Under the pieces are notes generated by a model. It ran no database searches, had not been told where the DNA came from, and worked only from the letters and a program-made list of their open reading frames with translations. Below are positions 5,881-63,012 of a DNA stretch of 64,000 nucleotides, one piece after another. The DNA comes from a virus. Lineage: Duplodnaviria > Caudoviricetes. Both the position numbers and the translations under genes were made by a program. Each line of letters opens with the position of its first letter. Positions within the stretch are counted from its first letter, which is position 1. The DNA lies in the IMG/VR virus record IMGVR_UViG_3300027754_000037; one strand, given 5' to 3'.

Positions 5881-6771
5881 TTATGACTGTTGAACTATCT
5901 GCTGCTGTGACTGCATCTGTGGCATCTGTTGTTTGTTAGCGCCTGTTGCTTGAGGCTGCGACTGCATCTGTGGCACCCCAGAAACCTGTTGTTGGTTCAT
6001 TCCCGCTCCTTGAGGTGGTGTCCAAGTGACACCTTGAAGTCTTGGGAAGTGGTCAGCACCTAGGAAAAGCAAGCCGCCATTTTTTTTAGCAAATGGCACA
6101 ATCTGATCCTCTCTATTTTTTTCTGCTGCGTCTCCAAGTACGCTGAGTGTATTTCCCTTTTCTTCCCACATTTTATTTTCTGCTTGCAGAAGCCATTGTT
6201 TGAATTCAGCAGCTTTATCTCCTTTGAATTCCTGCTGCTCGAAATCTGGGAATACTTCTCGCACAACATCAAATATTTGTTTTATTTCTGCATCGCTTAG
6301 TTTTTTATTTACACCTTTATTTGCGAAAGTTCCAGCGCCGTTTGCTAGTGCGCTTCTGAGAGCATCGCCTATTGTATTTGAATTTTGGAAGTCGATCTTT
6401 GGTGAGTTCGTATCCCAATTAGCTTTAACGCTGGAGAAGACTGGTACACCGGCATGAAATCCGGGCATAGTGACATCGTCATCGTAGGAGCCGTTGTTTT
6501 TGGGGTTTTGGACACCCAGAACTTTTTCTAAATACGATTTTTCGGGACCGTTACCAAATTGTCCCTCTTCGCCTATGCCCTCATACCGATATCCATACTT
6601 CTCGCAGATATTTTTTGCATATTCTTTTGCGATGTTATCGGATGGTGGTGCAATTTTTGTGGTGCCGGGTTTATCTCCATGTGCTGATGGAATGATAATC
6701 GCATTGCCGACATAGGCGAAACCGTTTCCGGCTTGTTCGATCAAATATAGCCATTCTTTGAAATTCAGCAT
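5881..6771 (-). CDS. Putative head-packaged protein, capsid-targeting-like leader; possible TIKI/TraB/EreA-type fold
   Basis: Starts MLNFKEWLYLIE; SAHG, YEG, NRE and LFLGADHF motifs; Gln-rich tail. Confidence 0.55.
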   Translation of the reverse strand: MLNFKEWLYLIEQAGNGFAYVGNAIIIPSAHGDKPGTTKIAPPSDNIAKEYAKNICEKYGYRYEGIGEEGQFGNGPEKSYLEKVLGVQNPKNNGSYDDDVTMPGFHAGVPVFSSVKANWDTNSPKIDFQNSNTIGDALRSALANGAGTFANKGVNKKLSDAEIKQIFDVVREVFPDFEQQEFKGDKAAEFKQWLLQAENKMWEEKGNTLSVLGDAAEKNREDQIVPFAKKNGGLLFLGADHFPRLQGVTWTPPQGAGMNQQQVSGVPQMQSQPQATGANKQQMPQMQSQQQIVQQS

Positions 6772-6775
6772 AAAT

Positions 6776-6783
6776 TATCTATG
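6776..6783 (-). promoter_or_regulatory. Putative late promoter box CATAGATA, 4 nt before ATG
   Basis: CATAGATA-ATTT-ATG. Confidence 0.6.
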
Positions 6784-6789
6784 CTGAAT

Positions 6790-7443
6790 TTATTTTTTTT
6801 TTCTGATTTCAGAGATGAGATTTTTGAGCAGGTTGGAGGCTTCGTTTATAAGTTGGCTTTTGCGCACATCGATATTGTTTTGGCTGTAGGGTTTTTTGTA
6901 GCCGAAAACAGCGCCTTGGATGCAATTATCGGGAACGAAGATGCCTGAGTAGCGGCATTGGTTAACGATGGGCATGATAGCTTCTTTGGGGCTGATATTG
7001 TCTTGTGTTTTGTAATCAGCCATAGCTAAGGGCAATTTACGGTTATTGTAGTCATTAGCTCCGTCATCGCCGTGTATGAAAAACGCTCCTACTTTGCCTT
7101 CGTAGTGATTTTTGAGCAGTTCCTTGTATTTTCCTGACTGTTCTAATTTGGTGGTTTTATTGGGGTCTTTGATATCTTTTCCCATGAGTTCTTTGGCATC
7201 TTCACGGGTAAGTGTGAGGTTGATGCAGACGAGGCGGTCAAATAGTGCTTTGACTTGGCTGGATGGTGCGGACCAATGTACTGGGGTAAATACGGCAAAG
7301 CCGTGTGCTTTTTCAAGTCTTTCGTAGACATTTTCTTGGTGCATGAGGTCATCTGTGCCATCATTTTTGTCATAGCAACTGCAAGGGTAGTGGCAATGGA
7401 AGCCGTTAGCAGAAGAACTACACAAAAGTTGCATTGTCGGCAA
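6790..7443 (-). CDS. Flavodoxin-like / NADPH-dependent FMN reductase family, N-terminally truncated
   Basis: CHYPCSCY, VFTPVHWSAPSSQVKALFDRLVC and AFFIHGDDG; in-frame TGA at 7476-7474; first Rossmann strand absent. Confidence 0.65.
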   Translation of the reverse strand: MPTMQLLCSSSANGFHCHYPCSCYDKNDGTDDLMHQENVYERLEKAHGFAVFTPVHWSAPSSQVKALFDRLVCINLTLTREDAKELMGKDIKDPNKTTKLEQSGKYKELLKNHYEGKVGAFFIHGDDGANDYNNRKLPLAMADYKTQDNISPKEAIMPIVNQCRYSGIFVPDNCIQGAVFGYKKPYSQNNIDVRKSQLINEASNLLKNLISEIRKKK

Positions 7444-7454
7444 ACAGGCTTCAC

Positions 7455-7664
7455 ATGACAGATGTAGAAAATGTCAAGAACAAAAAGGCTATAGAAAGAA
7501 TTTTGAAGAGAACGGATAGTGGAAAAGCATTTCCGACTGACTTTAAGACTTTAGAAGATTTAGAAAAAAAAGATAGAGATATTGAAATGAAATTAGCGCA
7601 AGCCAAGAGAAATCATCAGGCAGCTTTGCAGAGGAGGCGTGGTGGTTGGGAGGTGGTTCAATGA
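7455..7664 (+). CDS. Small charged hypothetical protein
   Basis: ATG at 7455; K/E-rich helical sequence; no clear promoter space. Confidence 0.4.
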   Translation: MTDVENVKNKKAIERILKRTDSGKAFPTDFKTLEDLEKKDRDIEMKLAQAKRNHQAALQRRRGGWEVVQ

Positions 7665-7717
7665 ATTTCAGGGAATACGCTATACAGGGTGTTGTTTCGG
7701 TGTTAAGTTAGTTCTGG

Positions 7718-7987
7718 GTGCAAATTTCATATAGTTATAAATTAATGAATAAAGCTATGAAATACAAGCATGTGTTATATCCTGTGACCAGCCAAGGTAA
7801 GTTGAGGCAGCTTCTCAGATTTTATCAGTCTGATTTAGCATTTGGTAAAACTTCTAGAGACCCTAAAGAGGTAGCTGAGGTTTTGTTGTGGTTTGATAAT
7901 GAAAGTGCCAAATTCAAAAATTCAACTAAAAGGGTGTCGAGTCTTATTGCTGCTCTCTGGTCGCAGTATTGTCGGAGCAATGGTTAA
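7718..7987 (+). CDS. Hypothetical protein
   Basis: ORF of up to 89 aa; true start uncertain. Confidence 0.4.
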   Translation: MQISYSYKLMNKAMKYKHVLYPVTSQGKLRQLLRFYQSDLAFGKTSRDPKEVAEVLLWFDNESAKFKNSTKRVSSLIAALWSQYCRSNG

Positions 7988-9138
7988 TAGCCGCTTGACA
8001 GAAGACCTCGCACCCGCCAACCAGAAAGGTATCTCTTCACAACTATTTTGCCTAGGTCAGCGATAGCTTGGTTTACAACTTTCAAATACCTCTCCACAAG
8101 GACTTTCTTGCTGATATCTACAGATTTTTCTTTGTATAGCATATACATTGCCAGTACGGTATTGAAAGCTCCTATAGCCAGCAAAGTACCTCCCGACAAA
8201 GCTCCAGCAACTGCTGAGAAAGCAGCGCCAGCGACTCCGGCGTACTTCTCGATGCTTGTGAGGGCACTTGAGCTTTGAGGCTTATCTATAATCTCCTGAA
8301 TTTCTCCAGCAAGCAACCTAAACTTAGGATGTTCTTGGTCGATAAATCCTACTAACTCCTCTGTGCTCATATTGTTGATATTGCGCATGATGATTTGAGC
8401 TTCCCTCAAGTTGGCAGAGGGATTGCGTTGTTTGAGGAGCAAGTTTAAAAATTGTTCCAAGCCTTGAAGGGTGGGCTCACCGCTTGAAATTTGTTTCATT
8501 TGGCCTTGTTTCAAATCCATTTTTTTCTTGTCACCAAGGGCACGAAGATCATTCTTGATAGTATCCAAATCGCCGTCAAATTTCTTGGAAATTTTGTCGG
8601 TGCCAGTACGCTTTTCTGGTGTTGCCAACCAATTCTTATAAAAAATGGCAGCTTTATCGTACATTAAATTACGATAATCATTCAGATTGTAGGTCTCATC
8701 GAGTGCTTCTACGCTTTCAAATTTTCTGCCGAACCAGTTAGCAAGAATCCAATTCTTATAGCGAGCTCCCAAGGCTTTTTTATAGTTGTCTAGAGTTAAA
8801 GCAGCACGATAGTAAGCATCGCTTTCCTTATTTTTTTTGGAGTATGCACCGAGTGTTATGCTAATCATCTTGGCCAGCATGTCGTTAAGACCGCCGAGAA
8901 ACCTATTGGCGAGAAATTTCATGTCGGATTGTTTAAGTTTTGAATCAATTTTTGAAGGTGGAGGTGGTTCTGGCATGGGGACATCTTTAATTCCAGAGGC
9001 ATTTAGGGATGCTGCCTTATCATCGCCTTTGGCGTTAATGTCTTCTAATTGCAGTATTTGAATCTTTGACTCTCTTAGGTCAAAGTCATTGATGCTGAAG
9101 CATTCTTCGGTGTTGAGCCATTCTTTAAGATTAAGCAT
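7984..9138 (-). CDS. Putative head-packaged protein with C-terminal hydrophobic segment
   Basis: Starts MLNLKEWLNTEE; segment AGVAGAAFSAVAGALSGGTLLAIGAFNTVLAMYML. Confidence 0.7.
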   Translation of the reverse strand: MLNLKEWLNTEECFSINDFDLRESKIQILQLEDINAKGDDKAASLNASGIKDVPMPEPPPPSKIDSKLKQSDMKFLANRFLGGLNDMLAKMISITLGAYSKKNKESDAYYRAALTLDNYKKALGARYKNWILANWFGRKFESVEALDETYNLNDYRNLMYDKAAIFYKNWLATPEKRTGTDKISKKFDGDLDTIKNDLRALGDKKKMDLKQGQMKQISSGEPTLQGLEQFLNLLLKQRNPSANLREAQIIMRNINNMSTEELVGFIDQEHPKFRLLAGEIQEIIDKPQSSSALTSIEKYAGVAGAAFSAVAGALSGGTLLAIGAFNTVLAMYMLYKEKSVDISKKVLVERYLKVVNQAIADLGKIVVKRYLSGWRVRGLLSSGY

Positions 9139-9142
9139 AATG

Positions 9143-9150
9143 TATCTATA
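9143..9150 (-). promoter_or_regulatory. Putative late promoter box TATAGATA, 4 nt before ATG
   Basis: TATAGATA-CATT-ATG. Confidence 0.6.
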
Positions 9151-9166
9151 TTTTTGGTCTCTGGTT

Positions 9167-9607
9167 TTAAGAGATTTGTTGGTCTGATGTTTTAGGTTTT
9201 CTGATCATGGTATCTTGGTCATCTCTCCGCAGGGAGTTGAAGCCGAATGATTTATAAAAGTTTTTCAATTTCCTTGAGGGAATTCTCTCATCAGTTTTTA
9301 GAGGAACTGCGTTGAGTTCCAGCCAAGTATTTGTCTCATCTGCCATCCTTGTGATTTTTTCCATGAATCTTTGGCCTGCGCCTGTTTTGGTTGGTACGGT
9401 GTGAATTTCTTCGATATGGATGCCACCGGGTTTCATTACCGATGAATTGATTTTGAACATTACAACGGTTTCGCCGTCTGTGTAGTAGTAATTGTGGCCA
9501 AAGGGATTCATTTGTGCATTTACGCTTGCAAAGAATCTACTGATAAATTGTTGGGAATTTGCGGGATTTACTGTTTCAACTGTTAGCCAATCTTTGAAAT
9601 TTAACAT
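9167..9607 (-). CDS. GNAT-fold acetyltransferase with capsid-targeting-like leader
   Basis: MLNFKDWLTVE; IHIEEIHTVPTKTGAGQRFM (motif A); LELNAVP; LKNFYKSFGF (motif B). Confidence 0.75.
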   Translation of the reverse strand: MLNFKDWLTVETVNPANSQQFISRFFASVNAQMNPFGHNYYYTDGETVVMFKINSSVMKPGGIHIEEIHTVPTKTGAGQRFMEKITRMADETNTWLELNAVPLKTDERIPSRKLKNFYKSFGFNSLRRDDQDTMIRKPKTSDQQIS

Positions 9608-9611
9608 AAAT

Positions 9612-9619
9612 TATTTATG
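9612..9619 (-). promoter_or_regulatory. Putative late promoter box CATAAATA, 4 nt before ATG
   Basis: CATAAATA-ATTT-ATG. Confidence 0.6.
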
Positions 9620-9704
9620 TCAAATTATGTTTTTTTTATTGGGCTCATTTGAAACGAGAAACAAAAGTAAAAAAAATTTTAAATCAATCATTCTTTGTTA
9701 AGTC

Positions 9705-10753: not shown

Positions 10754-10757
10754 AAAG

Positions 10758-10808: not shown

Positions 10809-11285
10809 TCAATAAGTGTTAAAGCTTTTACCGCCACCTGTTTTCAGAACGACATAAGCGAACTTACGGGGGTAGCCGGAATCGGTTCCATCATCGTCTC
10901 CTGTGTGGAGGATGAAGCCACCGAAGGTCACGCCTTGCTCCCATTTGTAGGTGGTTTCATCTCCTGAGTCATCGTCGGTAAAATCCGAATCGTCGAAGTT
11001 ATTGCCATTGCTGTCAATCTTTTCGATGTGAGGAGGATTGTCTCCACGACCATCAGAGTTGGTCCAGTCGGATTGGGTGACGAGTACGACCACATCATCG
11101 GGGTTCTCGTTGATACCGGGAATACGGACTTCGAGTTGCCAAACATCTTCGTAGTCCCAAACTTCTCCAGCAGCGAGAATAGCTGCGCCGTTTGCGGGTT
11201 GATAGATAGTTCTCTTGTTTCCGGGTCCTTTATTGAGGCCATCGGAGGAACCATTTCCTGTTCCAGTAACGCTAGTAGCTGACAT
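10809..11285 (-). CDS. Putative virion protein with M(S/G)AT-x-x-x-GTG-x-G N-terminus
   Basis: MSATSVTGTGNG; SD AGGAG; acidic beta-rich body. Confidence 0.65.
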   Translation of the reverse strand: MSATSVTGTGNGSSDGLNKGPGNKRTIYQPANGAAILAAGEVWDYEDVWQLEVRIPGINENPDDVVVLVTQSDWTNSDGRGDNPPHIEKIDSNGNNFDDSDFTDDDSGDETTYKWEQGVTFGGFILHTGDDDGTDSGYPRKFAYVVLKTGGGKSFNTY

Positions 11286-11311
11286 ATTTTTTTTCTCCTG
11301 TTAAAAAATGA

Positions 11312-11599
11312 TTAAGCAAGCTTGACGACGACATAATCTTCAGAGTTGTGTTCGGCGCTAACAACAGCTTTGCCGTTCACGACGACTTCTAAACTGCCAG
11401 AAGCACCGGCATCGACCTTACCAAGAACTTCGAGAGCGTTGACAACGGTATCAACATGCTTCTTTTTCATATCGGCAACTGTGACTTTGACGAGGTTGTC
11501 AGCGACAACAGCTTCGGTCATTTTGTTTTTAACGCCCATGACAACAAACTTGTCTTCCTTATGTGCGTTGAGAACTTCGAGAAGTGCATTCAGGTTCAT
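11312..11599 (-). CDS. Hypothetical protein
   Basis: 95-aa ORF with SD GGGAG and typical codon usage. Confidence 0.65.
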   Translation of the reverse strand: MNLNALLEVLNAHKEDKFVVMGVKNKMTEAVVADNLVKVTVADMKKKHVDTVVNALEVLGKVDAGASGSLEVVVNGKAVVSAEHNSEDYVVVKLA

Positions 11600-11755
11600 A
11601 ATAATCTCCCATAAAAAGATGAGTCGAAAGTATTTATGGTTTTGCTTTTAACAATGCGTTTTATACAGATGTTGTTTCGCAAAATTATTTTATTTTTACA
11701 TTTTTGCATTTATTGTCATGGCAAAAACTAAATATTTCTTGAAAGGGCAAAAAAA

Positions 11756-12349: not shown

Positions 12350-12353
<4 letters not shown>
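12039..12353 (+). CDS. Signal-peptide protein with K/E/P repeats
   Basis: Hydrophobic N-terminus ending VQG; repeated PKKAEPK(PK)LEGRP. Confidence 0.65.
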
Positions 12354-12706
<353 letters not shown>

Positions 12707-12721: not shown

Positions 12722-13060
12722 TTAGCATCGACATTTCCATACTCTTAGTGCCGCATTGATTTTACTCTTTGGGTCATTGGCTGTTTTGGCAGATGTATTG
12801 TGTTTTCGCATTCCGCACATGCGACTGCAAAATGATTTGCGGCGACTTTTCGTTTTGTCGGACATCTTGCTTACGCCACCTTTGCGTTCTGCCTCACGCT
12901 TGGTTTCAATACCAGCGTGGATGCCGAGTTTTTTAGCGTAGGCTGGTTTAAGCCCGCCTTCTGGGTGATTCTTTTTGGGGTTATAGCCTTTATATGGCTT
13001 CTTTCCTTCATGTAGGAAATCTTCATCTCGTTCTTGCAGCCATTCGGAAAAAGATTGCAT
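12722..13060 (-). CDS. DUF6321-like basic protein with capsid-targeting-like leader
   Basis: MQSFSEWLQERDE; RRKSFCSRMCG...ALRVWKC. Confidence 0.7.
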   Translation of the reverse strand: MQSFSEWLQERDEDFLHEGKKPYKGYNPKKNHPEGGLKPAYAKKLGIHAGIETKREAERKGGVSKMSDKTKSRRKSFCSRMCGMRKHNTSAKTANDPKSKINAALRVWKCRC

Positions 13061-13082: not shown

Positions 13083-13108
13083 TATTTATGGTTCGTCCTG
13101 TATAAATA
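13083..13108. promoter_or_regulatory. Back-to-back putative late promoter boxes
   Basis: CATAAATA on minus (13083-13090) and TATAAATA on plus (13101-13108) between divergent genes. Confidence 0.7.
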
Positions 13109-13113: not shown

Positions 13114-13317
13114 ATGAAATTTGCAGACTGGTTATCAAGATTGAACGAGATGATGTCCTCTAAAGGCAAGGGTCATCCATTCAAACCCGGACCTAGGGAT
13201 GTAAAGCCAAAGCCACATGATTTAAAATTGTGTGGTCAGGGAGGAGGGCCGGGGCCTTGTGAGGGTGGTGGAGGTGGAGGTGGAGGTGCTATGCCTGCTG
13301 CGCCTCCTGCTGGTTAA
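13114..13317 (+). CDS. Small Gly/Pro-rich protein with capsid-targeting-like leader
   Basis: MKFADWLSRLNE; TATAAATA 5 nt upstream of ATG. Confidence 0.65.
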   Translation: MKFADWLSRLNEMMSSKGKGHPFKPGPRDVKPKPHDLKLCGQGGGPGPCEGGGGGGGGAMPAAPPAG

Positions 13318-13696: not shown

Positions 13697-14269
13697 TTAT
13701 TCAAAAAAAGTCAACATGCAATTTGGTATTTTTGGCCCTACTATTTTTAAGAATTCTTGAGCACCTTGATTGCTGAATACGATTTCGTGGCGATTGCGAC
13801 ATTGGTGTGTAGTACAATCGCAATCTAGGCTGTTGAAGTAATCTGCTATAATTTTCGTGCCTTCCTCGCCAAACTTATGTGTTCTGAGGTAAGCTTTTCT
13901 TACGCCTTTTCTTCCAGCGTCGATGAACCAAGTCATCCAAGCCTCATCGGTGAGTATTTCCAGAATTTCACGGGTAATTATTTTATCATTATCTTGGTAA
14001 AAAGTTTTGTAGACATCGTTAAAGACTGGGAAGGCGATGCTGTAGCATCGAAATGTGTTTTTGTCTTGTTTGATGGTATTTTGGTCAATTTTGAAGAAAT
14101 CTTGGAGGACTTGGACCTTGTATTGGAGCCAAGTGTGGTTGTTGTCACGCATGGCTAGGTAGCAATTCTTGCCACGGTCTGGTCGAATTATGGACGAACC
14201 GCCGAGAATGGTGCCATACAGGATTTGCCTCTGGCAGTCTTTGAGGCTTGGACCGCATTGATATGTCAT
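13697..14269 (-). CDS. LAGLIDADG_2 (I-SceI-like) protein lacking the catalytic aspartates
   Basis: QILYGTILGGSSI and WMTWFIDAG correspond to GLILGDAY and AYWFMDDG. Confidence 0.75.
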   Translation of the reverse strand: MTYQCGPSLKDCQRQILYGTILGGSSIIRPDRGKNCYLAMRDNNHTWLQYKVQVLQDFFKIDQNTIKQDKNTFRCYSIAFPVFNDVYKTFYQDNDKIITREILEILTDEAWMTWFIDAGRKGVRKAYLRTHKFGEEGTKIIADYFNSLDCDCTTHQCRNRHEIVFSNQGAQEFLKIVGPKIPNCMLTFFE

Positions 14270-14392
14270 TGTTTACCTCTTGATTTATATATGATTTTTC
14301 GCAAAATTTTGTCCGATATGTGGCAAATTGATTTGAATTGTTTGATTGATTTTAATAAATACCTGAGTTCTTTTCTTTAAAGGAGAAATAAA

Positions 14393-14941
14393 ATGGGAGC
14401 TACAACAACGCAAGGAACTGGACCCGGTTCTACATATAACATTAAGCCTTTGGTTTTCAACGGAATTGTTAAGACTGGCAACTTGGGGCCTATGGCTGTT
14501 CAAGACAATCTGTCTGGCGAGAGCAAGCTGTTGGCTTTGTCCAATGCAACTGTTACTTTGACCGAAGCTGATCATGCTGGCAAGATTTTGGTTCTGAATA
14601 TTGCTGATGGAGTGACTGTCACCCTGCCTGCCACTAGTGGCAATGGCGCAAAGTATACTTTTGTTGTAAAAACAACTGTCACCAGCAACAACTACATCAT
14701 CAAGGTTGCTAATACTACTGACAGCCTTGTTGGTCGTGCTTTGGCATGTGCTGACGGTGGCAACACCGTTAACGGCTGGGAAGTTACTGGTGGCGATGAC
14801 ACCATCACCCTGAATGGTGGCACTAAGGGTGGATATGCTGGAGACACTATTGAATTGATCGACATCGGTGGCAAGTTTGTTGTGAACGCTTTCTTGAATC
14901 AAACCGCCAGCGAAGCAACTCCTTTCAGCGCAACCGTCTAA
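14393..14941 (+). CDS. Putative virion structural/decoration protein
   Basis: MGATTTQGTGPG; T/G-rich beta sequence (TLTEADHAGKILVL...VTVTLPAT); SD AAGGAG. Confidence 0.7.
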   Translation: MGATTTQGTGPGSTYNIKPLVFNGIVKTGNLGPMAVQDNLSGESKLLALSNATVTLTEADHAGKILVLNIADGVTVTLPATSGNGAKYTFVVKTTVTSNNYIIKVANTTDSLVGRALACADGGNTVNGWEVTGGDDTITLNGGTKGGYAGDTIELIDIGGKFVVNAFLNQTASEATPFSATV

Positions 14942-14956
14942 ATTTAGGAATTTATC

Positions 14957-15307
14957 ATGGGAGCCACAACCACACAAGGAACTGGACCCGGAATGGCTCA
15001 CCCCAAACCGGGACTTCAAAACAAGAAGATTAATGAAGCTGCGCAAGTTAGTTTATCTTTGAATAATTTTTTTGGTCCTAGGGTTGTGGCTGCTGGAATT
15101 ATCAAATTGCAGGGCGAAACCGGTAAGGTTTGTTTTGCAGCGCAAGTTGGCAACATCAAGGATTACTGTGTGCTGTTGACGAACAACAGCCCCAGTAATC
15201 CTTTTCTTTCATATCCTCTATCTGAGGAATCCCAGTTTTGGTCATTTGAGGTGACGGCTGGCATCAACGATGTAGTTTCCTATGTTGTTTTGAGGTCAGG
15301 AAGCTGA
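14957..15307 (+). CDS. Putative virion protein, same N-terminus as upstream gene
   Basis: Identical 12-aa start MGATTTQGTGPG; SD AGGA. Confidence 0.7.
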   Translation: MGATTTQGTGPGMAHPKPGLQNKKINEAAQVSLSLNNFFGPRVVAAGIIKLQGETGKVCFAAQVGNIKDYCVLLTNNSPSNPFLSYPLSEESQFWSFEVTAGINDVVSYVVLRSGS

Positions 15308-15872: not shown

Positions 15873-16409
15873 TTAATCCTCCAAGATACCGGCATCGTTG
15901 AGTGAGCGTGCAAGTTTTATTAGGTGCTTGCACATACCCGGAAGTTCGAGCGGATTGCTTGAACCCGGATTTGTTTTCGCCTCGTACTTCTTCCTGACTG
16001 TGCCGTACAGCGACTTATCTTTTTTGTCTTCAAAATTGAAACGATAATAAAAATCGCTACAGTTACAACGAAGGGCTACTTCGTTGTTGGCATTAAGTTT
16101 GTCGAAAAAGTAATTGCGTCCATCGCTTGCGACTATTTCCACCCAATTCCGATTATCTTTGGAGTTGTGATAATTCACTTTTTTGAAGAGAATTATTGGG
16201 TTGTATTCCTTACCATTTCCTTCGTTCTTCGCCAGACCTTTGACGAATAATGTTCTGACACCCTTGTAGGGTAGCCAATTCATTTGTTTGATAACAATTT
16301 CATCGATTGAGTGTTGTCTTTTAGCTGTTTTGGGAAAAGCCTGTACTGTAGATTTGTATAAATCGTACAGGTTGGATTCCTTGATCAACAGATAATCGTT
16401 GAAATTCAT
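15873..16409 (-). CDS. SWIM-type Zn-finger protein with capsid-targeting-like leader
   Basis: MNFNDYLLIKES; RCNCSDFYYR...GMCKHL. Confidence 0.7.
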   Translation of the reverse strand: MNFNDYLLIKESNLYDLYKSTVQAFPKTAKRQHSIDEIVIKQMNWLPYKGVRTLFVKGLAKNEGNGKEYNPIILFKKVNYHNSKDNRNWVEIVASDGRNYFFDKLNANNEVALRCNCSDFYYRFNFEDKKDKSLYGTVRKKYEAKTNPGSSNPLELPGMCKHLIKLARSLNDAGILED

Positions 16410-16413: not shown

Positions 16414-16421
16414 TATTTACA
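16414..16421 (-). promoter_or_regulatory. Putative late promoter box TGTAAATA, 4 nt before ATG
   Basis: TGTAAATA-CTAC-ATG. Confidence 0.5.
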
Positions 16422-20447: not shown

Positions 20448-20990
20448 ATGTGCGAAGTTTTAGAAAACTACATCGGCTACACAATTTACTGTGATTTAGA
20501 TGGAGTATTGGTCGATCTAGAAAGAGGCGTAAGAGAAAATCTTGGCATGGGAAGTCCCATGAGTAGACTTGAGATGGTGAGATCTTTGGCGAGGATGAGG
20601 CGCAATAGTGATGAAGAGTTGGTGGAATTTTTCGCAAATTTGCCTTGGACTGAGGATGGGGAAAGATTATGGACATATCTAACGCCTTACGAGCCTTTGA
20701 TTTTGACAGGCGGAGCGGAAGAAGCCAATGCGATTGGAGCAGGCAAAAACAGATGGGTACAGAGAAATCTTGGAATATCTGCAAGTAAAATTATTCACGA
20801 GAGTAACAAATCTAAGTTTGCGGGTCCAAATAAAATTATAATTGATGATTATGACAAGAATGCCCGAGATTTCACTTCTGCTGGTGGCATAGGAATTTTA
20901 CATACCAATACAGGTAACACGATTTCGCAGCTTAAAAACATTATTGTTGGTCAAATAAAGCCTAATCTTAGTGTGAGGGGGTTATCATGA
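20448..20990 (+). CDS. HAD-superfamily 5'(3')-nucleotidase-like phosphatase (start uncertain)
   Basis: IYCDLDGVLVD, LILTG, GK..W and IIIDD motifs. Confidence 0.8.
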   Translation: MCEVLENYIGYTIYCDLDGVLVDLERGVRENLGMGSPMSRLEMVRSLARMRRNSDEELVEFFANLPWTEDGERLWTYLTPYEPLILTGGAEEANAIGAGKNRWVQRNLGISASKIIHESNKSKFAGPNKIIIDDYDKNARDFTSAGGIGILHTNTGNTISQLKNIIVGQIKPNLSVRGLS

Positions 20991-21205
20991 AGTGTGACAT
21001 GCCGGACTGTTGTAACGATTTTGTTAAAACTTATAAATTACATGGAATTTATGCGGGAGTGGCGCAAAAAGTCGAAGTGTATTTTTGCAATAATCACAAG
21101 ATCAATGAAATCAACAAAAGAATTGATGAAATATGCGATAACAAGATTTGTACTTTGCAGAATGTGAATCCATTTAAAGATGTGAAAATGCACATCAATT
21201 CATAG
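20987..21205 (+). CDS. Small Cys-containing hypothetical protein
   Basis: 72-aa ORF coupled to the upstream stop. Confidence 0.5.
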   Translation: MKCDMPDCCNDFVKTYKLHGIYAGVAQKVEVYFCNNHKINEINKRIDEICDNKICTLQNVNPFKDVKMHINS

Positions 21206-21208
21206 ATA
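21201..21208 (+). promoter_or_regulatory. Putative late promoter box CATAGATA, 4 nt before ATG
   Basis: CATAGATA-AAGC-ATG. Confidence 0.6.
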
Positions 21209-21212: not shown

Positions 21213-21419
21213 ATGAGGTCTTTTAAAGAATATCTATCAGACAAGCTTTCACATGACCAGCCTCCTAGTGCTGGCGATTTGGGAGACAATCACTCCAATG
21301 CTGACAGGAATTTTGGTCGTAGTGGCGCTAAGTCGAAGAATGTGATGTCCGGGGGGTCTAAGTCGATTAGTGATTTGAATCCAGATCGTTTATTTGGCAA
21401 AAAAAGGTTTAAAAAATGA
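21213..21419 (+). CDS. Small protein with capsid-targeting-like leader
   Basis: MRSFKEYL; basic C-terminus. Confidence 0.65.
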   Translation: MRSFKEYLSDKLSHDQPPSAGDLGDNHSNADRNFGRSGAKSKNVMSGGSKSISDLNPDRLFGKKRFKK

Positions 21420-24792: not shown

Positions 24793-25626
24793 TCAATCCT
24801 CAAAAAGTGTTCCTGCGACTCTCAGGATAAATCCATCTGTTTCGATTGCGCCAGAACCAGCGGGAATGGTTCTTCTAATCCAAATCGGAATAATATCCAA
24901 ACCTTTCATTTCACCAAGCACCGCATCGGTTGCATCGAATGTTACATTGTTTGGTGCTGTTGTGTCTATATCAATTGAATCGGCTTCGCTGTTTACTGGA
25001 GAGCCATTACTGGTTTTTTGTACTGTAGCCGTGGGTTGTGGATTTGATGGATTTGAAAGTGTAATGTTAAGAGTTTCCATGATATCGTGAAATCTATTAC
25101 CAGCTTTGGTTACAAAGTCTACTTGGAAAGTCAAGGGGTTGCCGGGAATTTGACTGCCTGTAACTGTCACATTTCCTGCTCCTAATGCACTTTCCATACC
25201 GCTCAATACTGAAGCTGTCATGTTCGTGATAGTGTCTGCGTTTACCGTGAAGGTGCTGTTGCCTTGTGCATTTGTGTATTTGACATCAAAACTTCCGGTT
25301 GTAGTTCCTTCTGTAAAATTGCCGACAAAAATATATTGCCTTTCGTTTTGAAAAATAAACCCGAAATCTACAGTCACATCCCCCGGCGCATCGTAATACA
25401 TGGAAACTGTAGTTGCAAATAAAGAATCTGATGCATTTTCGTTTACCAAGTAAACGCAACGATAGTCTACTCTGCCAACTAATGCTTGATTAGCGGACAC
25501 ATTGTTAAATAGATTTGTGCCAATTACATACTGGAGAGATGGCGTTCCTCCAATTGATAGTTGAGGTGAAGTCGGACTTCCGTCGCCGCTGTACACATAT
25601 CTAATTTTTGTTTTGTCGATTGGCAT
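24793..25626 (-). CDS. Putative virion structural protein
   Basis: NLFNNVS...VDYRCVYLVN; T/G/N-rich beta composition; late box plus SD. Confidence 0.65.
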   Translation of the reverse strand: MPIDKTKIRYVYSGDGSPTSPQLSIGGTPSLQYVIGTNLFNNVSANQALVGRVDYRCVYLVNENASDSLFATTVSMYYDAPGDVTVDFGFIFQNERQYIFVGNFTEGTTTGSFDVKYTNAQGNSTFTVNADTITNMTASVLSGMESALGAGNVTVTGSQIPGNPLTFQVDFVTKAGNRFHDIMETLNITLSNPSNPQPTATVQKTSNGSPVNSEADSIDIDTTAPNNVTFDATDAVLGEMKGLDIIPIWIRRTIPAGSGAIETDGFILRVAGTLFED

Positions 25627-25642: not shown

Positions 25643-25650
25643 TATCTATG
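25643..25650 (-). promoter_or_regulatory. Putative late promoter box CATAGATA
   Basis: Box, then SD GAGG, then ATG 25626. Confidence 0.55.
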
Positions 25651-30563: not shown

Positions 30564-30722
30564 TTATAAATATTTGATTCTGGCTATCTTGCTTTTTCTC
30601 TCTTCTACGGCCTTGATGCGATCTGCCAAATCCTTTTGACTTACCGTAAGAGGCCTAAAACCAAAATTTTTGGGTAGTGCTGATTTAGCTCCACAACCAC
30701 AACCTTTTTGATTTTTCTCCAT
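30564..30722 (-). CDS. 52-aa basic protein with GCGCG (absent from ORF track)
   Basis: MEKNQKGCGCGAKSALPKNFGFRPLTVSQKDLADRIKAVEERKSKIARIKYL; CATAAATA-N4-ATG. Confidence 0.6.
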   Translation of the reverse strand: MEKNQKGCGCGAKSALPKNFGFRPLTVSQKDLADRIKAVEERKSKIARIKYL

Positions 30723-30726: not shown

Positions 30727-30734
30727 TATTTATG
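30727..30734 (-). promoter_or_regulatory. Putative late promoter box CATAAATA, 4 nt before ATG
   Basis: CATAAATA-GAGT-ATG. Confidence 0.6.
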
Positions 30735-34956: not shown

Positions 34957-35006
34957 GTTCTACTAGTATAATCCCTATATTATCTTAATAATATCTATAT
35001 ACCCGT

Positions 35007-35486
35007 ATGAATTCCCGCTGGATAGGGCAGCGGAACGGTTCGGGTTGCGGACCCGTTGCCATTTTGAATCTCTTGAAATGGCTAGGCGAGCCTATCTCCT
35101 ACGCTGAAAATTATCGCTATTATTCTAAAAAAATGAAGACTAGCAGGTATGGGACGGAACTCCGTGATTTTGTGCGTATTTTGTACGGCATAAATGGAAT
35201 TAAAATAAGTCCAAGAAATGTTCCAGACATCGGCGTGATTGAAGAAGCCTTGGATAATGGCAAGGCAGTCATTATGAAATCGGCGTATTTTAACGGTAAG
35301 GATTTGGAAGGGCACTATTTTCTGGTAACGGAAAAAACTGAAAAATCATTTTTTTGCGTAAACATCAACAGAAAACATCAATGGGTTTCAAAACCCAGTT
35401 TCAGATTAAAATGGTTGCAACACCATCAAAATTATTGCAACACCTGTGGAATAGCTCCGTATTGTTGGATTGTCAGAAAAGTGTAG
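35007..35486 (+). CDS. C39-like cysteine peptidase domain protein
   Basis: QRNGSGCGPVA (Q-x5-C) and GHYFLV. Confidence 0.7.
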   Translation: MNSRWIGQRNGSGCGPVAILNLLKWLGEPISYAENYRYYSKKMKTSRYGTELRDFVRILYGINGIKISPRNVPDIGVIEEALDNGKAVIMKSAYFNGKDLEGHYFLVTEKTEKSFFCVNINRKHQWVSKPSFRLKWLQHHQNYCNTCGIAPYCWIVRKV

Positions 35487-36512: not shown

Positions 36513-36538
36513 ATTTATCTCCGATACCTATATATTGT

Positions 36539-37303
36539 ATGATGTGGATCAAATTTAGCGAATGGGTTGAATTGCGTGAGAGCTACAACGCTCCGAGAAA
36601 GGGCATGAAGTCCCGTTGGAGCACATCTTATAAAAAGAGCATTAATTGCGGCCATCCCAAAGGTTTTAGTCAAAAAAATTATTGCAAAAGAAAAGCCCGA
36701 GGTGGACAGTACACGGAGCAGTCAACTGTCGGTACTGAAGAGGTTGACTTCTCGCAAATAGAACAAAGATATTCCAAAACCAAGATTTCCGTCATGCTGG
36801 TTAGGCTTTACGACCAAATGACCAATCAAAAGCTTCTCACAAATATATCAACCATTGCCAACTTAAGCGGAAGCGCCTATGGAGTTTATGTAAGTAGCGA
36901 AAATAAAAAGGCGATTGGTTCTGATATTGTCAATAAAATTAAATTAATTTATCCGAACGATCCTAGCTTGGGAGAAAAACTTCAAAAGTTGCCCAAAAAA
37001 GTTTTAATGCAGTATATGCCTCACTTGGATGACAAAAAAATTGTTCCTTCAGATGTAATCCATGTCGATGTGAACAGACATCTGAGTGATTTAGGAGATT
37101 CTCCAGCAGCTATTATTGAAATAGCCAGCACAATTGTACACGAGGCAACTCATGTGTTGGAATATGAAGCCACAGGACAAACCAAGGACGGCCCAAATAC
37201 AGCCGTCGAGGTTGCAGAAAGAAAATTCAAGGCTTGGGTCCAACAGAACTGGAAAATGCTTCAGCAGAAGTTTGGATTCCAAGGTGAATATCCTTTTAGA
37301 TAA
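36539..37303 (+). CDS. HEXXH zinc-metallopeptidase-like protein with capsid-targeting-like leader
   Basis: MMWIKFSEWVELRE; IVHEATHVLE; N-terminal YKKSINC..PKGFSQKNYC module. Confidence 0.7.
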   Translation: MMWIKFSEWVELRESYNAPRKGMKSRWSTSYKKSINCGHPKGFSQKNYCKRKARGGQYTEQSTVGTEEVDFSQIEQRYSKTKISVMLVRLYDQMTNQKLLTNISTIANLSGSAYGVYVSSENKKAIGSDIVNKIKLIYPNDPSLGEKLQKLPKKVLMQYMPHLDDKKIVPSDVIHVDVNRHLSDLGDSPAAIIEIASTIVHEATHVLEYEATGQTKDGPNTAVEVAERKFKAWVQQNWKMLQQKFGFQGEYPFR

Positions 37304-41654: not shown

Positions 41655-41921
41655 ATGGCTAGTTGGATGGACTACATGATGAATCCTAGGACTCATCATT
41701 TAAAAAAAGCGATGTATGAAATACTGAAGGAACGATATGGACCACATGACCAGATACTCGAAAGAGTTTCATCGTCTTTGGTGACTGAATCTGATATTCA
41801 GGATTTTTTTAAATTAATTACTTCCATTTATGAAACAGCTTATTTAAAAGCCGTAAATGATCACTCGGATGCTTTGACTAAATTGGGATTACATGCTAAA
41901 GTGGTATCGGACAAAAACTAG
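41655..41921 (+). CDS. Hypothetical protein
   Basis: 88-aa ORF; SD AAGG. Confidence 0.65.
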   Translation: MASWMDYMMNPRTHHLKKAMYEILKERYGPHDQILERVSSSLVTESDIQDFFKLITSIYETAYLKAVNDHSDALTKLGLHAKVVSDKN

Positions 41922-42565
41922 GATTCAAAGCTTGGTTGATAGTCTGATGGGATCGATTCTATCAAAAAACCACCTTCCTTGGGTTCTATATTTTTTACTT
42001 TCCACCATCTTTTGAACATGGTTTTAGGGTACAGAATCGACCCCAAGGTAACTTTGTTGACATCTGTCCATACAACTAATTTGAAATCTTCCTGAACCAA
42101 GACAACACCTTCAAATGAAGATGGAGATCCATATTGAACAGTCTTTTGGGCTTCGCCATAAAGGCTGTCTATTTTAGTTCTGATTGTTGCAGGCAAAAAG
42201 TGGATGAAATTTTTTTCAATCTCTGGCTTTTGGTCTTCTTCTTTTCTTTTAAGGTCTTCTTGAATAACTGTTTTTCTTTCAAATTTTTCTGCCTCGGGGG
42301 GATCTGGCGATTTTTGCAATGGGACTTTATCTGTTTTTGGGACAACGATTTTGATTTCGGGTTTTGTTTTTTCTAATTCTGTAACAAAGTTATCTTTAAG
42401 ATCAAAATCAGACTTCTTGGGGATAACTACTGTGTTATCTTCTTTGGTTTCTGTGTCCCAACTCATGTTGTGAACCGTGAAACCATCCCAAACATCTTGC
42501 GTTTCCATAGCTGGGTTTGGGCCAAAAAGTTTGTATACACTACCGTCTTTATTGTAGAGTGTCAT
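41918..42565 (-). CDS. Hypothetical protein
   Basis: 215-aa ORF. Confidence 0.7.
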   Translation of the reverse strand: MTLYNKDGSVYKLFGPNPAMETQDVWDGFTVHNMSWDTETKEDNTVVIPKKSDFDLKDNFVTELEKTKPEIKIVVPKTDKVPLQKSPDPPEAEKFERKTVIQEDLKRKEEDQKPEIEKNFIHFLPATIRTKIDSLYGEAQKTVQYGSPSSFEGVVLVQEDFKLVVWTDVNKVTLGSILYPKTMFKRWWKVKNIEPKEGGFLIESIPSDYQPSFES

Positions 42566-42602
42566 ACTATTATATAGTTATGCTTTAGGAGTAAAAGAAA
42601 CG

Positions 42603-43104: not shown

Positions 43105-43112
43105 CATAAATA
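43105..43112 (+). promoter_or_regulatory. Putative late promoter box CATAAATA
   Basis: Box, then SD GAGGT, then ATG 43129. Confidence 0.6.
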
Positions 43113-51702: not shown

Positions 51703-52251
51703 TCAAGGATCGCTAACTATATTATGTCTTTTGTAAAGATTTTTAGTTTTTATAGCTGGTAATTTTTGATCCATTTGTATTTGCACAAAGTCAAGATATT
51801 TTCTTTTTAATTCGTTATAATTGCGAGCAGTTCGATAAAGTTGTCTAAAATGGTTCAGAATACAAGTTGTCATATAATTGAAAGCTTTGCCTTTTTTAGG
51901 ATCAAAGCGATCAATTTTTTCAAAGCAGATCATGACACCCTCTTGAATGGCATCGTCTTGATCAATTAAATTAAACTTAGCATATCGAACGATGTTTTGG
52001 GACAGGGTATAAAAAGCAAGCGCAAGCTCATCTTGAACCCCGTGATAATTGCTAGATATGAGTCTAAAATCCTGTTCAACAACAATCCAAGCCGAGGGTT
52101 TTTGGTATTTTCCTCGTTTCATGGTCCTTTGCTGAGTTCCAATGATATCATCCATGAGGAGTTGACATTTGATTCTTTCTTTCTTGGTTTTCTGGAATTT
52201 CACTATCAAAGCTTCAAATGTTCTGTTGTTTAAATATTCTGTCGCCATCAA
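51703..52251 (-). CDS. gp55: Late-transcription sigma factor (T4 gp55-like)
   Basis: YLNNRTF, DDAIQEGVMICFEKIDRFDPKK and AFNYMTTCILNHF. Confidence 0.85.
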   Translation of the reverse strand: MMATEYLNNRTFEALIVKFQKTKKERIKCQLLMDDIIGTQQRTMKRGKYQKPSAWIVVEQDFRLISSNYHGVQDELALAFYTLSQNIVRYAKFNLIDQDDAIQEGVMICFEKIDRFDPKKGKAFNYMTTCILNHFRQLYRTARNYNELKRKYLDFVQIQMDQKLPAIKTKNLYKRHNIVSDP

Positions 52252-56087: not shown

Positions 56088-56827
56088 TGGCAAAAGAAAG
56101 ATATCAAAATCCGAGTTGCGGAGATGAGATTACGCTGCGATTGTTTACCTACCAAAGTAACAATCGCAGCAATGTCGAAAGCATTACAGAAATAAAAATT
56201 TATGTGATTGATGATACGCTCAGAACTTCAGAAAATCCTGAAGGATTGCATTTGATTGAAACAATCGATGGATCAAATGTCGTCGAAGAAGAAACTGGAC
56301 AATATTCGATTACATTTACAGCAAATCCAGACCTTTACATCATCGGCAATTATTACGATGCATGGACTGTAGTTTTTTCTACTGACGACTGCGCATCATC
56401 TGATATCTATAACAAATTCAAGTTGTATAGCCACCTTTGGTTTACTTCTCCAGTACCTTTAATTTACGATTTTAACTTTAATTTCAGGCCAAACAGGATT
56501 CGCAAGGGCTCAAAACGCTATGTAATGGTGCAAATCACCCCGAATGTTCCACGAGGTGCCGATATAACTCCCTATTACGAAAATCTTGCCATAGTCTCAG
56601 ATTTAAGGGTCAGTATGTCACTTTCTTGTGGAGAATGTGTACCTGCTGAGGAAGACCTCAGGTTGGTTGTAGATCGGCACCTTGTGGAATATCGGGAAAA
56701 GGGTTATGGGTATTGGTATTTTGACACAAGTCTTTATGAAGAAGGCATTTACGATGTTTGGTTTGAGCTCGCTTTGGGCGAAAACATCTATCTTTCTGAA
56801 AAGAATGCCCTACAAATTTTCACTTAA
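56087..56827 (+). CDS. Putative baseplate/structural protein
   Basis: 246 aa, beta-rich; TAATG coupling to the frameshift ORF. Confidence 0.65.
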   Translation: MAKERYQNPSCGDEITLRLFTYQSNNRSNVESITEIKIYVIDDTLRTSENPEGLHLIETIDGSNVVEEETGQYSITFTANPDLYIIGNYYDAWTVVFSTDDCASSDIYNKFKLYSHLWFTSPVPLIYDFNFNFRPNRIRKGSKRYVMVQITPNVPRGADITPYYENLAIVSDLRVSMSLSCGECVPAEEDLRLVVDRHLVEYREKGYGYWYFDTSLYEEGIYDVWFELALGENIYLSEKNALQIFT

Positions 56828-59996: not shown

Positions 59997-60003
59997 TCCT
60001 CTT

Positions 60004-60044: not shown

Positions 60045-60046
60045 GG

Positions 60047-61209: not shown

Positions 61210-61266
61210 TAATCCTCGATCCCGTCCTAGCAGGACGGTAAAGCTTCACCTTATTTAGAGAGTATT

Positions 61267-62400
61267 TTAGCGGTTAATATTTGCGCTTAGATTTTCAAGT
61301 TCTTTTTTCTTGGACTCAAGCTCTGCAATCAGTTCTTCAAATTCGATCTTGCCGATAGACTGTTCTTGAACTAGCTGTTCGCTGTATTGTCTGATGTTGT
61401 TTACGATATCAATTATTTCATCGCATTTTCTGTCAACCACATCGACACGAAGTTCATCTTTGTTTTTTAAATATTCATTTTTCGGTTTTCTGTATTCGTC
61501 TCTTTCGTTCAGTTGCGTGACGATTTGAAATTTGGGTTCTACAAAATTAAGATCATGTCGCTTGCCATCAAATTGCCAAGGTTTGTAATTGTCTTTGAAT
61601 ATCTCAAACTTGTGAACATCTTTAACTTGCGTTTCTGAATCAGTCAGTCTGAAGTACCAAACTTGATTGTGGGGGAATTCAATAAGTTTATGAGACCTTG
61701 AAATACCTTTGATATCATGCACGCCTTCTTCCCATATTGCTGGTTCAGACATGAAGAATATTTGACCTAATTGCTCCCTGAGATCAACAAGCCACAGCGG
61801 TCTATGCTGGTTTCTAAAAAGCCATAGGTGCCTATCTCCTTCTAGACCTCTTTCGCCCAGAGCAACTGCCATGTGTCCTTCGTTGATGAAGCTGAATGTG
61901 TTGCGAATTCCAGCAAGTCTTTTTGGGTAAAGATCATCTGGAAGTTCCAGATCACAGTTTTCGGCATTTTCGATAATTCGTAAAATAATTTCTGAATCAC
62001 AATTTGAATTTACTACAAATTTTTGCTTGAGCGCATTGTATTCGATGTCATCAACACGACCATTATGTACCAATCCCAACGATCTGTCTGTGCTAGTGAA
62101 CGGATGATTGTTTTTGTTGAAGGCTGGTTCGCCAACACCTTTAGAAGCTCCTCTTGCGTGAACAAGCAAAAGATTTAGGTCATAACTTTGTATTTGTTTC
62201 CAAACTAAGCTTTTAACAAATTGACTAGAGCGTGTTGGTTCCTTGTGGTAAAGCAAAGCACCATCTTTGCCTGTTTCAACACCCCAATAACCGCTTGCGT
62301 CAATTCCTCTGGTTTCGCTTTTTTCAAACAGTCTGGTAATGATCTGATAAGAAACCAAAGGCTTAGTTGACTTGCCTATGAAGCCTGCGATGCCACAAAT
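61267..62400 (-). CDS. Class II (Ntn) glutamine amidotransferase; apparent ATT start
   Basis: Frame extends upstream of the track start to ATT-CGIAGFIG; RG.DA.G, HARGAS, NNHPF, HNG and DSE motifs. Confidence 0.8.
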   Translation of the reverse strand: MCGIAGFIGKSTKPLVSYQIITRLFEKSETRGIDASGYWGVETGKDGALLYHKEPTRSSQFVKSLVWKQIQSYDLNLLLVHARGASKGVGEPAFNKNNHPFTSTDRSLGLVHNGRVDDIEYNALKQKFVVNSNCDSEIILRIIENAENCDLELPDDLYPKRLAGIRNTFSFINEGHMAVALGERGLEGDRHLWLFRNQHRPLWLVDLREQLGQIFFMSEPAIWEEGVHDIKGISRSHKLIEFPHNQVWYFRLTDSETQVKDVHKFEIFKDNYKPWQFDGKRHDLNFVEPKFQIVTQLNERDEYRKPKNEYLKNKDELRVDVVDRKCDEIIDIVNNIRQYSEQLVQEQSIGKIEFEELIAELESKKKELENLSANINR

Positions 62401-62415
62401 AATACACCTACCTTT

Positions 62416-63000
62416 TTAGAATGCATCCATAGGACCGCTGCTACCACCCAGAGGAGGCGCAGCCATATCTTGGCCTGTGCCTACGGGAGGTGTGCCCTGT
62501 GGAGATTGATCAAGATTCATTGGCCCCGATGGCGCTCCCTGTGAGGCGGTTTTGCCACCTTTTTCTGCTTCTGGCGGTTGAGTAGGCTCTGGAGGTTTTG
62601 TTTCCGTACCACCCGTACCCTTTTTATCTCCGGTATTTTTCTTGCCACTCTCTGTCGGGGTAAGCTTGTTGATCGGAATGCCAAGATCAGCAACTAGTTT
62701 TTCCAAGGTGTCAGAAACACCTTGAATAATTCCCGGCATATCATCTTTTTCTTCAATTGACTTCATCAAAGCTACGCCGACCTTCTGCAAAACTAAAAGA
62801 TTTTTCCTCTCCTCTTTTGGCCAACTACTGTGCAAAACACGGCGAATCTGATTTACAATTCTTTGTGAATAGGAAATCATGTCACGAGTGCCAAGATTTT
62901 TGGCATCATCTCGCAATTCATGCACAGCAGTTAAAATATTGCCGACTTTTTGGGCCAAATAAGCCTGCTGCTCATTTAGAAGAAATTCTTTGAAACGCAT
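62416..63000 (-). CDS. Protein with capsid-targeting-like leader and Pro/Gly-rich tail
   Basis: MRFKEFLLNE; TATAAATA-N4-ATG. Confidence 0.75.
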   Translation of the reverse strand: MRFKEFLLNEQQAYLAQKVGNILTAVHELRDDAKNLGTRDMISYSQRIVNQIRRVLHSSWPKEERKNLLVLQKVGVALMKSIEEKDDMPGIIQGVSDTLEKLVADLGIPINKLTPTESGKKNTGDKKGTGGTETKPPEPTQPPEAEKGGKTASQGAPSGPMNLDQSPQGTPPVGTGQDMAAPPLGGSSGPMDAF

Positions 63001-63004
63001 ATTC

Positions 63005-63012
63005 TATTTATA
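63005..63012 (-). promoter_or_regulatory. Late promoter box TATAAATA, 4 nt before ATG
   Basis: Exact T4 late consensus; TATAAATA-GAAT-ATG. Confidence 0.7.

Follow-up and report, generated by a model that had tools for sequence, protein, structure and literature searches.

A T4-type late promoter box set directly before the start codon: probable leaderless late mRNAs in a family of freshwater huge phages

A 64-kb stretch of viral DNA (IMG/VR record IMGVR_UViG_3300027754_000037; 41.6% G+C), analyzed over its whole length and called the window below, contained an A/T-rich box resembling the late promoters of phage T4 that stood only 4–5 nt before the ATG in 11 of approximately 88 genes. To judge by the signatures around the box, these short-spacer genes probably give rise to leaderless late mRNAs, with a gp55-type promoter fused to the start codon. 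The layout is real, conserved, and specific to the phage family of the window. T4 late promoters and leaderless mRNAs are each known separately; no published description of a gp55-type late promoter fused to the start codon was found.

Spacing of the box across the phage family

The window derives from the genome of an uncultured huge phage of freshwater, a member of the T4 superfamily, based on the relatives of its capsid gene and on the occurrence of its DNA in freshwater and lake metagenomes. The T4 gp23-type major capsid protein (3388–4824, match to PHROG 138) matched more than 2,500 T4-like phage records, the nearest being LR756511, an unannotated 595-kb metagenomic genome, with 81% amino acid (aa) identity. 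All other records were at most 34% identical, with Microcystis phage Mel-JY01 and Xanthomonas jumbo phages the nearest among them. At least 382 relatives of the capsid gene were found in IMG/VR, and the best 80 of these (83–94% aa identity, on contigs of up to 532 kb) are the loci L001–L080. LR756511, a complete relative put together here from twelve 50-kb pieces, served for the genome-wide tests along with the IMG/VR contigs.

Copies of the hexamer TANATA were counted, for each offset, when followed by an ATG opening at least 60 codons. LR756511 had 31 such copies at 4 nt and 40 at 5 nt (Poisson p 5e-13 and 5e-20, respectively), 17 at 6 nt, and approximately 6 at other offsets. The window and the 80 loci together, after de-duplication, gave 42, 45, and 10 copies at 4, 5, and 6 nt, and approximately 10 at other offsets. 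The genome-wide peak at 4–5 nt, on which the initial annotation of this DNA had staked its reading, was thus present in both sets, and genes with this spacing make up about 10% of the total. In four further family contigs of 220–530 kb, TANATA-N4-Y-ATG (N4 being a spacer of four nucleotides) occurred 33, 8, 23, and 24 times, compared with 1, 2, 0, and 4 times for the reversed control. No peak at 4–5 nt was seen for GTG, TTG, CTG, or ACG, either in LR756511 or in the window with the 80 loci.

Phage T4 has 32 copies of TATAAATA located 13–41 nt from the next ATG that opens a reading frame, none closer, which indicates that the motif by itself does not bring about short spacing. T4, a cyanomyovirus, and Mel-JY01 showed no excess of the short-spacer motif over the control, while XacN1 showed none at N4 and a small, partly repeat-duplicated excess at N5 (11 versus 4). 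These counts ruled out the layout as a general property of T4-like phages.

Within the window, YATARATANNNNATG (YATARATA-N4-ATG) had 7 matches versus 0.17 expected, and none of 100 dinucleotide-preserving shuffles reached 7; TANATANNNNATG (TANATA-N4-ATG) had 10 matches versus 1.68 expected from shuffles of the same kind. A chance origin of the box-N4-ATG layout in the window was ruled out by these shuffles. One match (56397–56411, minus strand) is a chance hit that lies inside a plus-strand gene and opens a few codons only. YATARATA as such was not above composition, with 23 copies in the window; it is their position that is non-random. The distances from NATANATA boxes to the gene starts at which they are aimed were 4 (six times), 5, and 6, with none until 13 and a second mode at 16, and 32 of the 52 NATANATA copies fell into the intergenic ∼10% of the window. 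Conservation centers on the hexamer TANATA as the core of the box and does not extend to the full T4 octamer.

The eight short-spacer sites listed in the initial annotation were all present, each at its place and on its strand. Three minus-strand neighbors have CATAGATA-ATTT-ATG (box 6776–6783, ATG 6769–6771; gene 5881–6771, 296 aa, N-terminal leader MLNFKEWL), TATAGATA-CATT-ATG (box 9143–9150, ATG 9136–9138; gene 7984–9138, 384 aa, MLNLKEWL), and CATAAATA-ATTT-ATG (box 9612–9619, ATG 9605–9607; gene 9167–9607, 146 aa, MLNFKDWL); the first two have T at -1 and no Shine–Dalgarno (SD) sequence, and the upstream neighbor of the third is divergent. Also on the minus strand are a variant box, TGTAAATA-CTAC-ATG (box 16414–16421, ATG 16407–16409; gene 15873–16409, 178 aa, MNFNDYLL), CATAAATA-GAGT-ATG (box 30727–30734, ATG 30720–30722; gene 30564–30722, 52 aa, no leader), and TATAAATA-GAAT-ATG (box 63005–63012, ATG 62998–63000; gene 62416–63000, 194 aa, MRFKEFLL). 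The plus strand carries TATAAATA-TCATT-ATG, with N5 (box 13101–13108, ATG 13114; gene 13114–13317, 67 aa, MKFADWL), and CATAGATA-AAGC-ATG (box 21201–21208, ATG 21213; gene 21213–21419, 68 aa, MRSFKEYL). No function was assigned to these eight genes by Pfam or PHROGs.

Three more members were identified via the core hexamer, bringing the class in the window to 11. These are TATATA-TTGT-ATG (N4; hexamer 36529–36534, ATG 36539, plus strand; gene 36539–37303, leader MMWIKFSEWVEL), TATATA-ATAGT-ATG (N5; hexamer 42571–42576, ATG 42563–42565, minus strand; gene 41918–42565, 215 aa), and TATATA-CCCGT-ATG (N5; hexamer 34996–35001, ATG 35007, plus strand; gene 35007–35486, 159 aa), the last two with T at -1 and no SD.

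Homologues of bS21 (PF01165) were found in LR756511 (332226–332384, L100; 27 bits, at the cut-off) and twice (L101 and L102) in the 343-kb contig from which L041 comes. The window had none, and bS21 was absent from a 532-kb contig rated 100% complete in which the short-spacer motif is abundant (33 versus 1 for the control), ruling out a dependence of the layout on a phage bS21.

Sequence signatures at the predicted transcript start

The initial annotation had placed the start of transcription at or next to the AUG. The sequence signatures support this placement: a pyrimidine at -1, restriction to ATG, lack of an SD, T4-like spacing, short divergent gaps, and conserved spacing all held. The base at -1 was C or T in 70 of 73 N4 sites and 71 of 85 N5 sites (pooled and de-duplicated; 89% overall), and in all 11 window sites. 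At SD-led genes of LR756511, in contrast, the base at -1 was A in 48% and a pyrimidine in 44% of cases (Fisher p 1e-24 versus the class). Bacterial RNA polymerase is known to favor start sites with a pyrimidine at -1 and a purine at +1.

The spacing itself points to the same base. T4 late promoters (TATAAATA at -13 to -6) are read by gp55 together with gp33 and the gp45 clamp (PMC2988020). Across the 32 T4 boxes, the sixth base after the box was a purine in 26 and the fifth a pyrimidine in 21, and N5 puts the A of the ATG exactly at the canonical T4 +1 position. At SD-led genes with a box, GGAG or GAGG begins 5–9 nt after the box, most often at 6 and seldom nearer, in agreement with RNA that starts at the fifth or sixth base after the box.

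The absence of an SD from the short-spacer genes, also proposed at the outset, was borne out: none was found at any of the 11 window sites (anti-SD duplex energy above 0 to -2 kcal/mol), compared with an SD (motif GGAG/GAGG) in 47% of all called window genes and at 20% of random positions. An SD-like motif preceded 1 of 51 class genes in LR756511 versus about half of the other genes, and any SD-like word between -20 and -1 was present at 10 of 158 pooled sites. Leaderless mRNAs require a 5′-terminal AUG (Brock et al., 2008, as cited in PMC5312081), and the confinement of the distance peak to ATG fits this need.

Many class genes have little space for any other promoter. In LR756511, the upstream neighbor was divergent at 35 of 71 class sites (49%) versus 18% genome-wide (p 2e-8), and 16 of these 35 gaps measured only 17–32 nt. 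The divergent gaps in the window were 26 nt (36539), 28 nt (30722, facing the gene at 30751), 37 nt (42565), and 53 nt (13114), the last also containing an opposite-strand box at 13083–13090. With gaps this short, another promoter would sit inside the neighboring gene, and an mRNA leader would have a few nucleotides at most.

These arrangements bear on the rival explanation that the genes are read from longer upstream transcripts and initiate independently of an SD, by termination–reinitiation coupling or in an unstructured A/U-rich region, with the box incidental or a promoter for downstream genes only. In its favor, and against leaderless transcripts, 22 of 71 LR756511 sites (∼30%) lie at most 18 nt after a co-directional gene, and in 7 of them the upstream gene ends on the TAA or TAG of the box. 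The same holds for window site 21213, where the open reading frame (ORF) 20987–21205 stops at the TAG within the box, so translational coupling is possible there. An RNA-library contig also crosses the SD-led box at 2429. However, half of the LR756511 sites face a divergent gene across 17–90 nt, which rules out stop–start coupling as a general explanation; box variants without a stop codon (TATATA and TACATA) account for 35% of the class; and the same box stands upstream of SDs at variable distances. Moreover, neither the pyrimidine at -1 (95% and 83% of N4 and N5 sites, respectively, while SD-led genes prefer A) nor the sharp 4–5 nt spacing has a role in coupling. Read-through with SD-independent initiation is therefore considered unlikely to explain the class.

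The spacing was conserved among orthologues with unrelated spacer sequences. In the family of gene 15873–16409, the box stood at N4 or N5 in seven of eight members (40–72% aa identity), in the variants TGTAAATA, CGTACATA, CATAAATA, TGTAGATA, and AATAAATA. Short spacing was kept in the LR756511 orthologues of genes 15873, 62416 (50% aa identity; TACATA-AGTGT-ATG), 36539 (TAGATA-AACCC-ATG), and 41918. Orthologues of the 13114 gene kept N5 in L005, L008, and L030 and had N4 in L018. The LAGLIDADG homing-endonuclease family (13697–14269 in the window; L008, L044, L045, L047, L062, and L073) had either the box at N16 or N18 with an SD, or the box at N4 to N7 without one. Since this family switches between them, the SD-led and short-spacer architectures are interchangeable ways to express the same gene.

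Two of the window sites are also palindromic. The 6771 and 9607 sites form hairpins of 14 and 13 bp (minus strand, 6758–6794 and 9594–9632; z -3.6 and -3.1) from CATAAAT/ATTTATG and flanks. The box occupies the loop and the ATG the 3′ arm, the 5′ arm precedes the predicted start, and the two sites differ by two pair changes that are fully compensatory. The 5′ arm would be absent from RNA initiated at the ATG. On the plus strand, a T-run follows each of the two hairpins, which hence also resemble intrinsic terminators.

The element might instead work mainly as a palindrome or hairpin, for instance by terminating transcription of the opposite strand, directing RNA processing, or binding a protein; the 5′ end would then come from processing at the hairpin and not from initiation. 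The two hairpins with their opposite-strand T-runs would agree with such a function, as would the pairing of the ATG with upstream sequence in 55% of the class versus 34% of N16/17 controls. This excess is modest, though, and most window sites have no significant hairpin. The layout also matches the logic of T4 e, soc, and I-TevI (PMC3014915), which complements the promoter reading and does not replace it. A hairpin function as the cause of the layout thus appears very improbable.

The box as a probable late promoter

The box would be the T4-type late promoter of this phage family, read by a gp55-like sigma factor. This reading is suggested by the match of its core to the T4 consensus, by its rank among words upstream of genes (ATAAATA and ATATATA are the most enriched 7-mers there), by the boxes at 2429 and 43105, which head the capsid and tail gene blocks, and by the sigma gene that the phage encodes. 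No conserved -35-like block was visible in the position matrices of the sites.

Four boxes followed by an SD had been named in the initial annotation, and all are real. On the plus strand, the variant CATATATA at 2429–2436 lies 21 nt before gene 2458–3357 and heads the operon for the scaffold-like and major capsid proteins, and CATAAATA at 43105–43112, with GAGG from 7 nt after the box and N16 to the ATG at 43129, heads a plus-strand block with tail sheath and tube genes; the window also encodes tail sheath stabilizer and baseplate hub genes. On the minus strand, CATAGATA at 25643–25650 lies 16 nt before the ATG of gene 24793–25626, and CATAAATA at 13083–13090 lies 22 nt before that of gene 12722–13060, which has the leader MQSFSEWL. 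A further box, CATATATA at 14286–14293 (minus strand), precedes the LAGLIDADG gene (13697–14269; PHROG 11023) by 16 nt. A minimal-leader layout, box-N6-GAGG/GGAG-N5/6-ATG, was observed at 14286–14293, 25643–25650, and 36529–36536 (all minus strand) and at 43105–43112 (plus strand); at these sites, the SD would fall at the extreme 5′ end of the transcript.

The gp55-like gene was likewise confirmed, as encoding a small sigma factor of 182 aa (51703–52248, minus strand; ATG 52246–52248 after AAGGAG). It matched PHROG 234, "late sigma transcription factor," at 4e-9, and Pfam Sigma70_r2 with 30.8 bits versus a cut-off of 24, and BLASTP aligned it colinearly with T4 gp55 over 94 residues (E 4e-4). 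A phmmer search with T4 gp55 gave no match in the window or LR756511, and a Protein Data Bank sequence search with the window sigma gave nothing significant.

Pooled N4 sites had approximately 50% A at -30 to -28 and then approximately 50% T at -27 to -25, a tract 13–18 nt upstream of the box that may represent an upstream promoter element or else the trailing ends of terminators located before the sites.

RNA came from a lake metatranscriptome (X14) in the form of assembled contigs, which cannot show starts, strand, or level. X14 contigs matched exactly at the scaffold-like and capsid genes, at 10933–11604 and 14844–15170, and in the N4 gene 15873–16409 (match 16028–16262). Among the runs listed for 5860–9660, none was an RNA run. 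Upstream of the capsid operon, a second box, AATAGATA, lies at 2321–2328, 100 nt before the box at 2429. The interval between them contains, at 2373, the start of an RNA-library contig that has an adapter junction. The second box and this contig start hint at two late promoters before the capsid operon, as at T4 gene e.

Several other points weigh against leaderless late transcripts. The RNA contigs, being assembled, cannot show 5′ ends, and the one that begins at 2373 starts upstream of the SD-led box at 2429, so RNA there is not confined to transcripts initiated at that box, although the box at 2321 lies further upstream. At N4 sites, the A of the ATG is one base nearer to the box than the canonical T4 +1, and one LAGLIDADG orthologue (L073) has GTG at N4, the sole non-ATG exception seen. 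The hexamer has a low information content, and in co-directional intergenic gaps its sense bias was 46:28 (1.6-fold); the promoter determinants are therefore incompletely defined. Searches with T4 gp33 and gp45 (phmmer) revealed no homologue in the window or LR756511, a miss that says little at this divergence. Finally, leaderless expression presupposes a host able to translate leaderless mRNA.

Other features of the window include a strong bidirectional terminator (A-run, GC stem, T-run) at approximately 5790–5823, directly after the capsid operon. Paralogous small proteins beginning M-G/S-A-T-T/S-x-x-G-T-G-x-G are encoded at 10809–11285 (minus strand), 14393–14941, and 14957–15307 (both plus strand), and RNA-library contigs cover two of them (10809–11285 and 14393–14941/14957–15307). 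At 12549–12590, a small signal-peptide protein (12350–12706, minus strand) has a (Pro-Glu)n stretch encoded by a (GGTTCT)n repeat; DNA-run depth reached 107x and many contigs break there, which is typical of a simple repeat that other sequences share.

Leader-bearing cargo, known systems, and a possible gate

A leader of the form M-x-x-F-x-E/D-W/F/Y-L, resembling a capsid targeting sequence (CTS), had been described at seven of the eight short-spacer genes first listed, and it was found there, with 30722 as the gene without it. In LR756511, a CTS-like leader was present in 41% of the class versus 5% of SD-led genes (odds ratio 12, p 2e-11). The proposal that box, ATG, and tag form a portable cassette held in part. 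The ∼12-fold enrichment of the leader agrees with it, as do the three genes at 5881–9607, which had no homologue in the 80 related loci or LR756511 and are flanked by conserved neighbors, a pattern that fits variable cargo. It did not hold as a rule: of the window genes that carry the leader, ten, or more than half, are SD-led, and about half of the class lacks the leader. The box-ATG-tag arrangement is a frequent but non-obligatory combination.

Joint inheritance could also account for the spacing, if box, ATG, and leader were the conserved edge of shuffled cassettes (as proposed for T-even internal-protein loci) and the distance reflected descent or recombination homology. The neighbors 6771, 9138, and 9607 share the box, spacer-like sequence, and MLNF/LKEWL codons, lie between conserved genes without homologues of their own in relatives, and belong to a class in which the leader is enriched, all of which would suit such an origin. 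Yet spacer and flanking sequences show no relationship between most sites, nor between orthologues in which the spacing is conserved; the leader is missing from about half of the class, and the homing-endonuclease family alternates between SD-led and short-spacer forms. Descent also leaves the pyrimidine at -1 and the ATG-only rule unexplained, and as the source of the layout it is rather improbable.

The leader-bearing class proteins resemble CTS cargo, in which a motif of ∼10 N-terminal residues ends at a Glu cleavage site; their own packaging and cleavage are predictions. The T4 internal proteins IPI, IPII, and IPIII carry a capsid targeting sequence (PMC3012670), and their N-terminus, M-K-T-F/Y-x-E-F, is close to the leaders described here (T4 ipI MKTFKEF; LR756511 MKTFKEFAALKE). 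As in T4, the cargo is diverse and variable, and a gp21-type prohead protease is encoded (678–1337, plus strand; PHROG 207 at 2e-46; phmmer with T4 gp21 3.6e-21). Carriers number in the dozens per genome here, compared with the three or four SD-led internal-protein genes of T4, and about a third of the carriers lack an SD and are joined to the late promoter.

Late transcription in T4 is textbook material, and its late mRNAs carry an SD leader. Like T4 late promoters, the box described here is an A/T-rich -10-type element without a -35, has the core TA-A-ATA, heads capsid and tail operons, and is followed at about 6 nt by a purine with a pyrimidine before it; the sigma factor is of the same small, region-2-only kind (∼185 aa for the gp55 type, 182 aa here). 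Unlike in T4, positions 1, 2, and 5 of the box are degenerate (NNTANATA), the box lies 4–5 nt from the ATG in ∼10% of genes (never <13 nt in T4), and, as mentioned, phmmer revealed no homologue of gp33 or gp45 in the window or LR756511.

Four T4 genes, e, soc, 49, and I-TevI, have their late promoter within a hairpin, which keeps longer early transcripts from being translated (PMC3014915). The hairpins at 6771 and 9607 may act alike: the arm upstream of the predicted start pairs with the ATG, so that only box-initiated RNA would expose the start, and a homing endonuclease is among the genes that would be gated. Unlike in T4, where the late RNA keeps an SD leader, not every site here has a hairpin, and read-through RNA would already be silenced by its lack of an SD.

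Leaderless genes of Actinobacteria and Deinococcus-Thermus have a -10 hexamer, TANNNT, 6–7 nt before the start (Cortes et al., 2013; Shell et al., 2015; PMC4633059). There, too, the -10 element abuts the start codon, an SD is lacking, and a whole class of genes is affected; however, those genes use the housekeeping sigma of the host and also GTG, whereas the phage genes have a phage late sigma box and ATG only. Among phages, the lambda cI transcript from PRM begins at the start codon, and middle and late transcripts of Thermus phage P23-45 reportedly do so as well, as Berdygulova and colleagues are said to have found in 2011. These are host sigma-A promoters (remodeled by phage factors in P23-45), not gp55-type boxes, and neither phage belongs to the T4 superfamily. 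A literature search for leaderless late mRNAs in T4-like, cyano-, or jumbo phages returned nothing relevant, and the early transcripts of phiKZ include no leaderless members.

From these features, we infer a mechanism in which host RNA polymerase carrying the phage gp55-like sigma would read the box, with its core TANATA often preceded by C/T-A. In ∼10% of genes, the A of the ATG is the fifth or sixth base after the box, where T4-type late promoters initiate; the polymerase would start on this A, with a pyrimidine before it, and the late mRNA would begin 5′-AUG. Ribosomes would then recognize the 5′-terminal AUG without SD pairing. Read-through RNA from upstream would be poorly translated because the class genes have no SD, and in a subset a hairpin may additionally bury the AUG. 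Translation would in this way be tied to the firing of each gene's own late promoter.

A more speculative extension, offered tentatively and less likely than not, is that the arrangement acts as an AND-gate. The class genes, largely putative head-packaged cargo and a homing endonuclease, would be translated only from RNA of their own late promoter and never from early read-through, family-wide in freshwater huge phages and in place of the hairpin gating of T4. The gate may be matched by phage-modified ribosomes, as some members encode bS21.

If leaderless expression holds, the host would translate leaderless mRNA efficiently. The layout provides a simple rule for recognizing true starts and late genes in unannotated huge-phage genomes, in which SD-based gene callers misplace these starts. 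A clade of very large and abundant lake phages appears to fuse the late promoter to the start codon in tens of genes per genome, which suggests a very economical way of silencing potentially harmful cargo proteins until proheads exist.

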